A stretch of DNA of 64,000 nt from Eledone cirrhosa (GCA_964016885.1 OZ024741.1:158534001-158598000); one strand, 5' to 3'. Positions 33,849 through 34,342 are shown, numbered from the stretch's first letter. Notes: generated by a model from the sequence alone, not told the origin. Program-made: numbers and translations.

Positions 33849-33879
<31 letters not shown>

Positions 33880-33923
33880 AAGTTAAATAAAAGTCAAATG
33901 ATTAAAATTTAGCTTCGTTTATT

Positions 33924-33978
33924 ACTGCTATATATATTTCAGTGACAGCCATCTTTGGCTGTGACCTCTTCAGGCAGT
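33924..33978 (-). ncRNA. Hammerhead ribozyme (PLE2 type)
   Basis: Same sequence as 21752-21806. Confidence 0.85.
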
Positions 33979-34120
33979 TTGAATTAGTATGGTATAGACA
34001 AGTACATATGTTGTTGAGGTGTATAATATTGTCAATACTCTGATATGCCCAGTTCCTGGTTGGGTTGTTAATTCACTGAGGAACTGGAGTCATGTACTTG
34101 TCTATACCATACTAATTCAA

Positions 34121-34175
34121 ACTGCCTGAAGAGGTCACAGCCAAAGATGGCTGTCACTGAAATATATATAGCAGT
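34121..34175 (+). ncRNA. Hammerhead ribozyme (PLE2 type)
   Basis: Same sequence as 25960-26014. Confidence 0.85.
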
Positions 34176-34342
34176 AATAAACGAAGCTAAATTTTAATCA
34201 TTTGACTTTTATTTAACTTTATTTTACACTACTCCGGAGTAACCAAACCAACCTGCGCACTTCGTCGGGTGCTCCAGGCTGCATACTGAGGTGTTGGTAT
34301 ACAACCAACATAAACTCAAAATATATATATATATATATATAT

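Follow-up and report, generated by a model that had tools for sequence, protein, structure and literature searches.

A 64,000-nucleotide stretch of DNA from Eledone cirrhosa (hereafter the window, in which all coordinates are given) contains a 449-base hairpin-shaped repeat within a (TA)n microsatellite. We refer to this repeat (33873-34321) as the mini. It is related to a longer element of the same window, the big copy (PLE2, 21701-26160), which belongs to the Penelope-like elements (PLEs). Our analysis indicates that the mini is a separate insertion of this PLE family and that it likely arose in one event, in which both ends of the target DNA primed complementary DNA (cDNA) synthesis on one RNA, a CATATG palindrome then serving to join the two cDNAs.

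Structure of the mini and of the big copy

Copies are described on a sense reference, S (4,212 nt), made up of 21701-25817, reverse-complemented, and then the tail; S4117 is the boundary between arm and tail and S4212 the end. The only long open reading frame (ORF) of the big copy (24395-25777, 460 aa, containing YRDD) lies on the minus strand. Therefore, in the sense of the reverse transcriptase (RT), the order is ORF, 3' region and tail.

BLAST within the window confirmed both matches to the big copy that a first-pass annotation had proposed: 33873-34093 corresponds to 21701-21921 (99.1% over 221 nt, 2 mismatches), and 34092-34321 to 25931-26160 (99.1% over 230 nt). The left part of the mini also matches 26065-25845 in reverse, at 98.6%, and 34092-34226 matches 21835-21701 in reverse, at 100% over 135 nt. 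Thus the mini runs along an inverted arm from S4117 down to S3897 and then along a direct arm from S3983 to S4212. Its two 135-nt arms are perfectly complementary (0/135 mismatches), and its 86-nt loop is part of the left, inverted arm. The features are the following.

33850..33872, no strand: (AT)n target microsatellite, left flank, read directly; (TA)n abuts the left end of 28/28 tail-right copies
33873..34093, minus strand: inverted arm, reverse complement of S3897-S4117, tail-less; 33873-34007 pairs with the direct arm and 34008-34091 is the unpaired loop
34092..34093, no strand: inner joint, 2-nt AT from two CATATG palindromes (S3894-3899 and S3980-3985)
34092..34226, plus strand: direct arm, S3983-S4117, from BLAST, with 0/135 mismatches to the inverted arm
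34121..34175, plus strand: predicted PLE-type hammerhead-like motif, predicted cleavage at 34170/34171; reverse complement at 33924-33978
34227..34321, plus strand: 95-nt tail, S4118-S4212, direct arm only, ending in AAACTCAAAA
34322..34343, no strand: (TA)n target microsatellite, right flank; the mini is without TC repeats after the tail
21701..25817, minus strand: inverted arm of the big copy, S4117 to S1, carrying the RT part of the ORF and an inserted unrelated 189-nt repeat
25818..26160, plus strand: direct arm of the big copy, S3870-S4117 (25818-26065), and tail (26066-26160), then TCTCTCTCT and (TA)n

The mini had been described as the two ends of PLE2 joined together. This wording is misleading, although the mini is indeed a separate insertion: its two arms are copies of a single 3'-terminal region, one in each orientation. 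Thus, the mini is not a deletion uniting the two ends of the big copy. The shared outer endpoints are real, since in both elements (TA)n is directly followed by TAAAATAAAG on the left, and the right edge is AAACTCAAAA (34312-34321 in the mini, 26151-26160 in the big copy). The true right end of the mini is, however, 34321, one base past the 34320 originally given. At the joint, GAGTC-AT-GTACTTG lies between parental GGAGTCATATGAATTC (from 21915) and CAACATATGTACTTG (from 25925). Two parental CATATG sites do meet there, as first noted, but the strict microhomology is only 2 nt (AT), i.e. CATATG minus one AT.

The big copy has a 248-bp inverted repeat (21701-21948 against 26065-25818, 99.6%) and carries the 95-nt tail on its right side only. 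As the first reading had stated, its inversion point differs from that of the mini: it lies at 25817/25818, with a 5-nt microhomology, CACTG. The big copy is one more joint variant, and so is its 248-bp inverted repeat; in other copies the inverted overlap ranges from ~30 nt to ~3.8 kb. The unrelated 189-nt repeat that interrupts the big copy at 22538-22726 is absent from six fetched long copies (L073-L078). It has at least 15 other matches in the window at 75-94% (e.g. 62048-62238, 61849-62039, 59221-59363), and is likely a SINE-like (short interspersed nuclear element) repeat.

Outer ends and inner joints across the genome

The family was sampled in the 3.0 Gb genome assembly; fetched family loci are given L-numbers. 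A search with the whole mini returned 1,554 first-look candidates, of which 40 were scored and 30 loci fetched. Among the 40 scored, 27 other loci matched the full 448 nt at 89-99%. All 30 fetched loci lay in (TA)n and agreed in both of their ends. This sample is biased towards joints that resemble the query. Therefore a second sample was drawn with the tail alone (94 nt), which gave 117 candidates; 40 were scored, and the 39 loci besides the window's own were parsed against S.

The tail-sampled loci abut (TA)n, and in all 39 the direct arm ends at S4210-4212. In 30/39 an inverted arm abuts the direct arm. Its outer end, resolvable in 27 loci, is exactly S4117, without the tail, in 21, and in 25 it falls within S4110-4122. 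The remaining two end at S4049 (L057) and S4207 (L065); the tail is on one arm only in 26/27. Five of the 39 loci are plain 5'-truncated direct copies (L069, L111, L112, L115, L118), one is complex (L109), and three extend beyond the fetched stretch (L113, L114, L116).

Genome-wide, the arm/tail boundary, taken as a 24-mer, has 4,090 occurrences. (TA)3 immediately abuts the outer end of the inverted arm at no fewer than 1,991 sites, a lower bound given that the pattern has an indel in one subfamily. Reversed-pattern controls gave 0 in both cases. With reversed controls at 0 against 24 to 4,090 real matches for the patterns searched, the fold-back pattern is far above chance. Over the first ~160 Mb of contig 1, 44 fold-backs could be paired: 33 span less than 700 nt, 9 measure 425-445 nt and 10 reach 1 kb or more. 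The usual product is thus a miniature hairpin; the mini's own joint form is a minor class (24 of ~4,090).

Two near full-length loci, L074 (C28, ~119.68 Mb) and L075 (C4, ~287.39 Mb), are head-to-head pairs, with an inverted overlap of ~3.8 kb in L074. Therefore the two-armed architecture exists at full length too. Sequencing runs labelled as other organisms yielded contigs that match parts of the element, among them the boundary between arm and (TA)n, at 95-100% identity; the family or close relatives of it thus occur beyond the source organism. L011 and L012 (C2, ~130.68 Mb and ~131.29 Mb) agree fully in their flanks and in an odd joint, and are one segmental duplication, not two insertions.

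In contrast to the outer ends, the inner joints vary. Alignment across the joint of 30 mini-like copies revealed at least 15 different joints. CATG was found in L001 and L003, whereas nine copies had an intact CATATG. Additional parental sequence, to one side of the joint or the other, was present in L008, L010, L015, L018, L022, L027 and L029, deletions in L006, L009, L014, L016, L017, L021 and L026, and short reverse-complement snap-back fillers in L011/12, L020 and L023. L067, of the tail sample, has a snap-back filler as well. In the tail sample, inner ends span S1406 to S4099. When the reach of the two arms was compared (n = 30), 14 copies were symmetric within 13 nt; of the others, 12 had a longer inverted arm and 4 a longer direct arm.

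Joint microhomology was measured in L044-L072. Of the 28 joints, 20 are filler-free; one or more nt are shared at 17 of these and four or more at 7, and the mean is 3.25. Three values of the set are approximate, the shared string being longer than the count. The mean of 5,000 simulated random joints was 0.71, with 2.2% sharing 4 nt or more. Fillers of 1-23 nt occur at 8/28 joints, and that of L067 is a clear snap-back copy. This genome-wide tabulation (direct arm end in 39/39, inverted arm end at S4117 in 21/27, variable joints) bears out the earlier view of an independent insertion whose outer ends are fixed and whose inner junction varies and is mediated by microhomology.

The joints are not evenly spread. 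One third of the inner ends (20/60) fall in S3885-3915, where GAATTC and CATATG palindromes adjoin. At 398 loci the joint is an exact palindrome that has the CATATG at S3894-3899 as its centre, and 6 loci carry another symmetric joint, with reversed controls at 0 for each. This palindromic hot spot holds ~10% of insertions. The mini's CATATG-to-CATATG joint is present at 24 loci (12 GGAGTC, 10 GGAATC and 2 CATG, the latter being the window and L003; reversed control 0); beside the window there are thus 22 loci with intact CATATG at a joint of the mini's type and 1 with CATG. A special pairwise hot spot, CATATG to CATATG, was considered and dropped: ~20% x ~3% of 4,090, a rough estimate from the tail sample, already predicts the ~24 observed.

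The parent element and its hammerhead-like motif

Related RTs gave 43,810 first-look candidates in the genome, with open frames of up to ~890 aa. L032 has an intact 860-aa ORF with an N-terminal RT (YRDD), a low-complexity linker, CxCx5Cx5C and then LVYG...LYIGAT...R..H. In its C-terminal 180 aa, Pfam detected GIY-YIG (PF01541; E 7.2e-4, 20.3 bits, under the cut-off of 22.6), a match also found in 3/32 homologues of the protein. RVT_1 was not matched in the 860-aa protein itself and was matched in 1/32 homologues; Pfam searches of five ORFs from the window copy and of the whole 860-aa protein gave nothing meaningful. Searched against PDB sequences, neither the protein nor a profile of 32 sequences had a meaningful match. 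PHROGs returned for the C-terminus a single family of unknown function (E 0.034), ESM Atlas only unnamed clusters with HTH_animal, DUF8422 or RVT_1, and a large protein search 430 unnamed relatives, one of them labelled cephalopod.

An AlphaFold model built with 32 relatives is confident at residues 31-447 (predicted local distance difference test, pLDDT, ~90) and 718-848; residues 739-830 form, at high pLDDT, a strand-strand-helix-helix-strand-helix arrangement. In Foldseek, telomerase catalytic subunits take ranks 1-9 (3du5, E 9e-9, as well as Candida and Tetrahymena), and DRT, retron, LINE-1 and group II RTs rank below these telomerase RTs (TERTs). Since the RT clade of PLEs is sister to TERT, such a ranking is expected.

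Several full-length loci (L073, L076, L077) are head-to-tail partial tandems, in which the junction reads ...AAACTCAAAA directly followed by TCTATCTAGC..., then 126 nt, then S1. Head-to-head pairs are also found among full-length loci. As the tail runs straight on in the tandem masters, the TCT or TCTAT found after the tail in solo copies is templated. Altogether, the assignment of the parent to the Penelope-like elements is supported by most of their defining features: a TERT-like RT, tandems and inverted truncated copies with a one-sided tail, and a (TA)n bias, alongside a putative GIY-YIG domain.

The arm carries on its sense strand a hammerhead-like motif composed of ACUGC, CUGAAGA, a 10-bp helix II with one C-C mismatch, GAAA, UAUAUAUA and GCAGU. 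It is the only match of a descriptor scan over both strands of 8.8 kb; helices I and II form in its minimum-energy fold (z = -3.0), and the exact pattern is present in 44/69 loci. Rfam does not call the motif, even when the motif stretch alone is searched at E up to 10, and the motif is therefore described as predicted throughout. Searches of 21000-35000 (E up to 1) and of the L073 tandem junction returned no ribozyme family, only sub-threshold noise of microsatellite or miRNA-like type. In 21000-35000, dozens of sub-threshold Rfam miRNA matches (mir-297, mir-1277, mir-3149 and others) lie on TA/TG microsatellites or hairpins; these are composition artefacts, not miRNA genes.

A related but diverged element of the window, PLE1 (8342-11540), has an RT region 73% identical to that of PLE2 (8342-9309 against 24497-25463) and ends in (TA)n at ~11530. 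The corresponding motif (11431-11485) has the canonical CUGAUGA core and one compensatory change of a C-G to a U-A pair. Priming on (TA)n by the hammerhead-cleaved RNA end, which would finish with UAUAUAUA, was also considered and ruled out, as insertions do not end there and only 1/27 loci ends near it.

Origin of the two arms and relation to known repeats

Two subfamilies, GGAGTC and GGAATC, with further linked sites, are about equally common (33-44% variants in the contigs of sequencing runs). Among the first 50 palindromic loci listed, 24 carry G on both arms, 24 A on both arms, and only 2 are mixed. With two independent RNAs, mixed loci would make up about half; therefore the two arms derive from one template. 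Consistently, arm-to-arm mismatch is 121/7,353 paired positions (1.65%) against 2.8% between copies (55 copies). Thus, both arms of a copy bear the same subfamily variant.

We propose the following course of events. The RNA would run in RT sense and end at the tail followed by UCUAU. The GIY-YIG nuclease would cut the (TA)n target, after which one DNA end would prime at the 3' end of the RNA and the second at S4117, immediately before the tail. The S4117-primed cDNA would lead and the cDNA primed at the 3' end would trail, and this lead, which we infer, would explain why the inverted arm is as long as or longer than the direct arm in 26/30 copies. Both cDNAs being antisense, they would pair only at palindromes (CATATG, GAATTC) or via snap-back, and then copy each other. 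Structure just upstream of S3894 may make this site a stalling hot spot. As a guess, a protein-bound structured tail may set the S4117 start (tail fold z = -2.25).

The (TC)n that follows the tail varies from 0 to 28 repeats (e.g. window 26161-26169; L005, L006, L021, L073), and the masters template TCTAT only. This looks like slippage on UCU. Reiterative copying by a TERT-like RT may account for it and may seed compound (TC)n(TA)n microsatellites. A bolder version, which we regard as rather doubtful, is that every PLE integration is obligately two-armed. One RNA would bridge the cut (TA)n, the 95-nt tail would be a protein-bound handle between the two start sites, the cDNAs would be joined only at palindromes or by snap-back, and (TC)n would reflect telomerase-like reiterative copying of UCU. 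If true, this model would explain inverted repeats, one-sided tails and miniature (TA)n hairpins for PLEs generally.

Several observations weigh against the proposal that two DNA ends primed one RNA of a PLE. Which strand was made first is not readable from sequence alone, and the priming steps are inferred. The proposal does not account for a start at S4117, where only ~2 nt (UA) can pair with a (TA)n primer, and the better-matching AUAUAUAUA at S4052-4060 is the outer end in just 1/27 loci (L057). A longer direct arm, found in 4/30 copies, is not predicted by a leading and a trailing cDNA, and L065 carries a near-whole tail on both arms. Concordant arms would also be expected from hairpins copied as units, and symmetric joints from a single cDNA snapping back. 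The approximate values among the joint microhomologies, the sub-threshold GIY-YIG match and the silence of Rfam on the hammerhead-like motif point the same way.

The snapping back of a single cDNA deserves the closest attention among the alternatives, although we consider it unlikely. In such a copy-back, one cDNA primed at the RNA 3' end would stall, fold back and copy itself to S4117 as one continuous strand, with no second primer. The 14/30 symmetric joints, 8 of which lie outside the hot spot, fit this course, as do the tiny loops or fillers of 0-5 nt at the centres (TCA in L049, CAG in L072, TCTCT in L050), the snap-back fillers and the concordance of the arms. However, copy-back cannot yield inverted-arm sequence that is missing from the direct arm, and such sequence amounts to 86 nt in the mini and ~3.9 kb in the big copy, and is present in 12/30 copies. 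Copy-back also predicts the tail in the inverted arm, where it was found in 1/27 loci (L065).

Amplification of the hairpin as a unit is quite improbable as the main source of these copies. The mini would then be a non-autonomous element resembling a SINE or a miniature inverted-repeat transposable element (MITE), whose joint arose once or a few times before the hairpin spread. The 27 copies that match the whole 448 nt at 89-99% were at first read as one amplified unit, a reading dropped as the main one because their joints differ in alignment. The sharing of the CATATG-to-CATATG joint by 24 loci and of the symmetric joint by 398 is compatible with amplification, and L015 and L030, at different loci, share both a joint and one one-arm variant, a possible exception to what follows. 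In the tail-only sample, however, joints form a continuum. The same joint is found in both subfamilies (12 against 10), and the CATG joint common to L001 and L003 goes with different bases at two subfamily positions of the loop. Both observations argue for recurrent joint formation. One-arm variants that recur in two or more copies are mostly on different arms from copy to copy, which disfavours descent from a hairpin master. Moreover, transcription would have to begin exactly at hairpin base 1, driven from (TA)n flanks that are unrelated. Some copies may nevertheless stem from unit amplification.

A class II fold-back transposon with terminal inverted repeats (TIRs) and a TA target, its short forms arising by internal deletion during gap repair, is highly improbable. 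TIRs, a TA-rich target, fixed outer ends and variable microhomology breakpoints mark deletion derivatives of DNA transposons as well, and foldback elements and MITEs of class II are likewise short hairpin repeats in TA-rich targets. In contrast, this family has no constant TIR, the overlap varying from ~30 nt to ~3.8 kb and exceeding the 248 bp of the big copy at several loci. Its 95-nt tail is one-sided and is followed by variable (TC)n; plain 5'-truncated direct copies (5/39), forming part of a truncation series, occur together with head-to-tail partial tandems; and the sole ORF of the parent encodes an RT and a GIY-YIG-like endonuclease (EN) domain. Finally, microsatellite palindromes are difficult to assemble, and four public sequencing runs gave only short contigs, none across this locus; but an assembly artefact from chimeric fold-back reads is very unlikely indeed, because base-exact ends of the same architecture occur at thousands of loci and, in an independent run of another organism, short contigs show the S4117-equivalent arm end followed by (TA)n, as well as parental continuation at the joint.

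The proposed priming by two DNA ends has a relative in the twin priming of L1, in which, reportedly (Ostertag and Kazazian, in 2001), two target ends prime one RNA and leave an inverted 5' part and a direct 3' part with a microhomology joint. The likeness lies in two DNA ends on one RNA and in the inverted and direct parts. In L1, however, the second site varies and the parts barely overlap, whereas here the site is fixed at S4117 and the hairpin overlap is 30 to 3,800 nt. The event is the norm here and a minority in L1, and there is no poly(A) here. Thus, the mini may work like twin priming, yet it is not an L1 event.

For PLEs, the passages of Craig et al. (2021, PMC8557442) drawn on here describe a 5'-truncated copy with an adjacent inverted 5'-truncated copy, forming inverted repeats, as well as a tail at one end only (30-40 bp) and partial tandems (pseudo-long terminal repeats, pseudo-LTRs). 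They state a (TA)n bias for Naiads and ascribe that of Neptune to a Cys-rich EN linker; they also give the integration mechanism as undefined and the hammerhead motif as universal in canonical clades. The present family shares with the PLEs of these passages the inverted truncated neighbour, the one-sided tail, the partial tandems and the (TA)n bias. It differs from them in its tail, which is 95 nt instead of 30-40 bp, in the fold-back being the rule (30/39) and mostly miniature (33/44 spans under 700 nt), and in a palindromic hot spot with ~10% of insertions. It also differs from Naiads as described there in having a putative C-terminal EN and a hammerhead-like motif, and is therefore not a Naiad, yet it targets (TA)n.

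Minimal hammerhead ribozymes (min-HHRs) of PLEs, in the part of Cervera and de la Pena (2014, PMC4209133) that concerns them, include dual motifs ~100-700 bp apart and on opposite strands. Our predicted motif resembles those treated there in its type I core (CUGANGA...GAAA), long helix II, helix I of 4-5 bp, short palindromic helix III and location in a terminal repeat; dual motifs on opposite strands are what fold-backs produce here. It differs from them in a helix II of 10 pairs with an internal C-C mismatch, and it remains a predicted motif on which Rfam is silent. The predicted cleavage site (S4060/4061) is not used as an insertion end. Metazoan retrozymes, as the relevant text of Cervera and de la Pena (2020, PMC7229834) presents them, are short non-coding hammerhead-bearing repeats thought to depend on PLEs. 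The repeats of that text are head-to-tail and give circular RNAs, in contrast to the mini, a single fold-back in which one motif is sense and the other antisense. The mini appears to be an insertion by-product, not a self-propagating unit.

Since inverted 5'-truncated copies, one-sided tails and a (TA)n bias have already been published for PLEs, the architecture of the mini is known, and the mini is a very clean example of it, not a new type. The data add the 95-nt tail, the fold-back as the norm, the derivation of both arms from one template, the palindromic hot spot and the asymmetry in arm reach. In the literature searched, subscription journals excepted, we found no paper that quantifies the inner joints of PLEs or proposes a two-primer model.

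Other hairpins lie near the mini. A second fold-back family, built like the mini, adjoins it in the same (TA)n, at 34343-34519, with ~45-nt arms (34343-34434, 95.7% self-complementary) and a tail of ~85 nt, reaching 34519 and ending in CCATTCTGATA. This family gave 1,222 first-look candidates in the genome, of which 29 loci were fetched. In these 29, the family's end, CCATTCTGAT(A), borders on TA-rich sequence that is mostly (TA)n, and fold-backs were detected in 15; variable inner joints are visible in contigs. A U-rich site, ...CAUAU, precedes the ~85-nt tail and is comparable to the S4117 site. No RT-bearing parent was matched by tblastn in the 29 loci. Thus, the first-pass annotation's claim that the short hairpins are PLE products stands for the mini's own family but lacks such a parent for this neighbour, for which a PLE origin would be an analogy only. 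By eye, a long inverted repeat with ~100-nt arms was also seen at ~11640-11890 (centre ~11760), between (TA)n tracts and with (GA)n after it, and may represent a third such hairpin family.

The integration of PLEs is an acknowledged open question, and the ~4,000 or more young insertions of one family make questions about integration countable. With base-exact ends, two marked subfamilies and resolvable joints, it can be counted whether the arms come from one RNA, whether the tail-less arm leads and which sequences attract joints. Finally, in such genomes many of the (TA)n hairpins and MITE-like repeats may be the debris of PLE insertion, easily mis-annotated as fold-back transposons or as miRNA-like hairpins.

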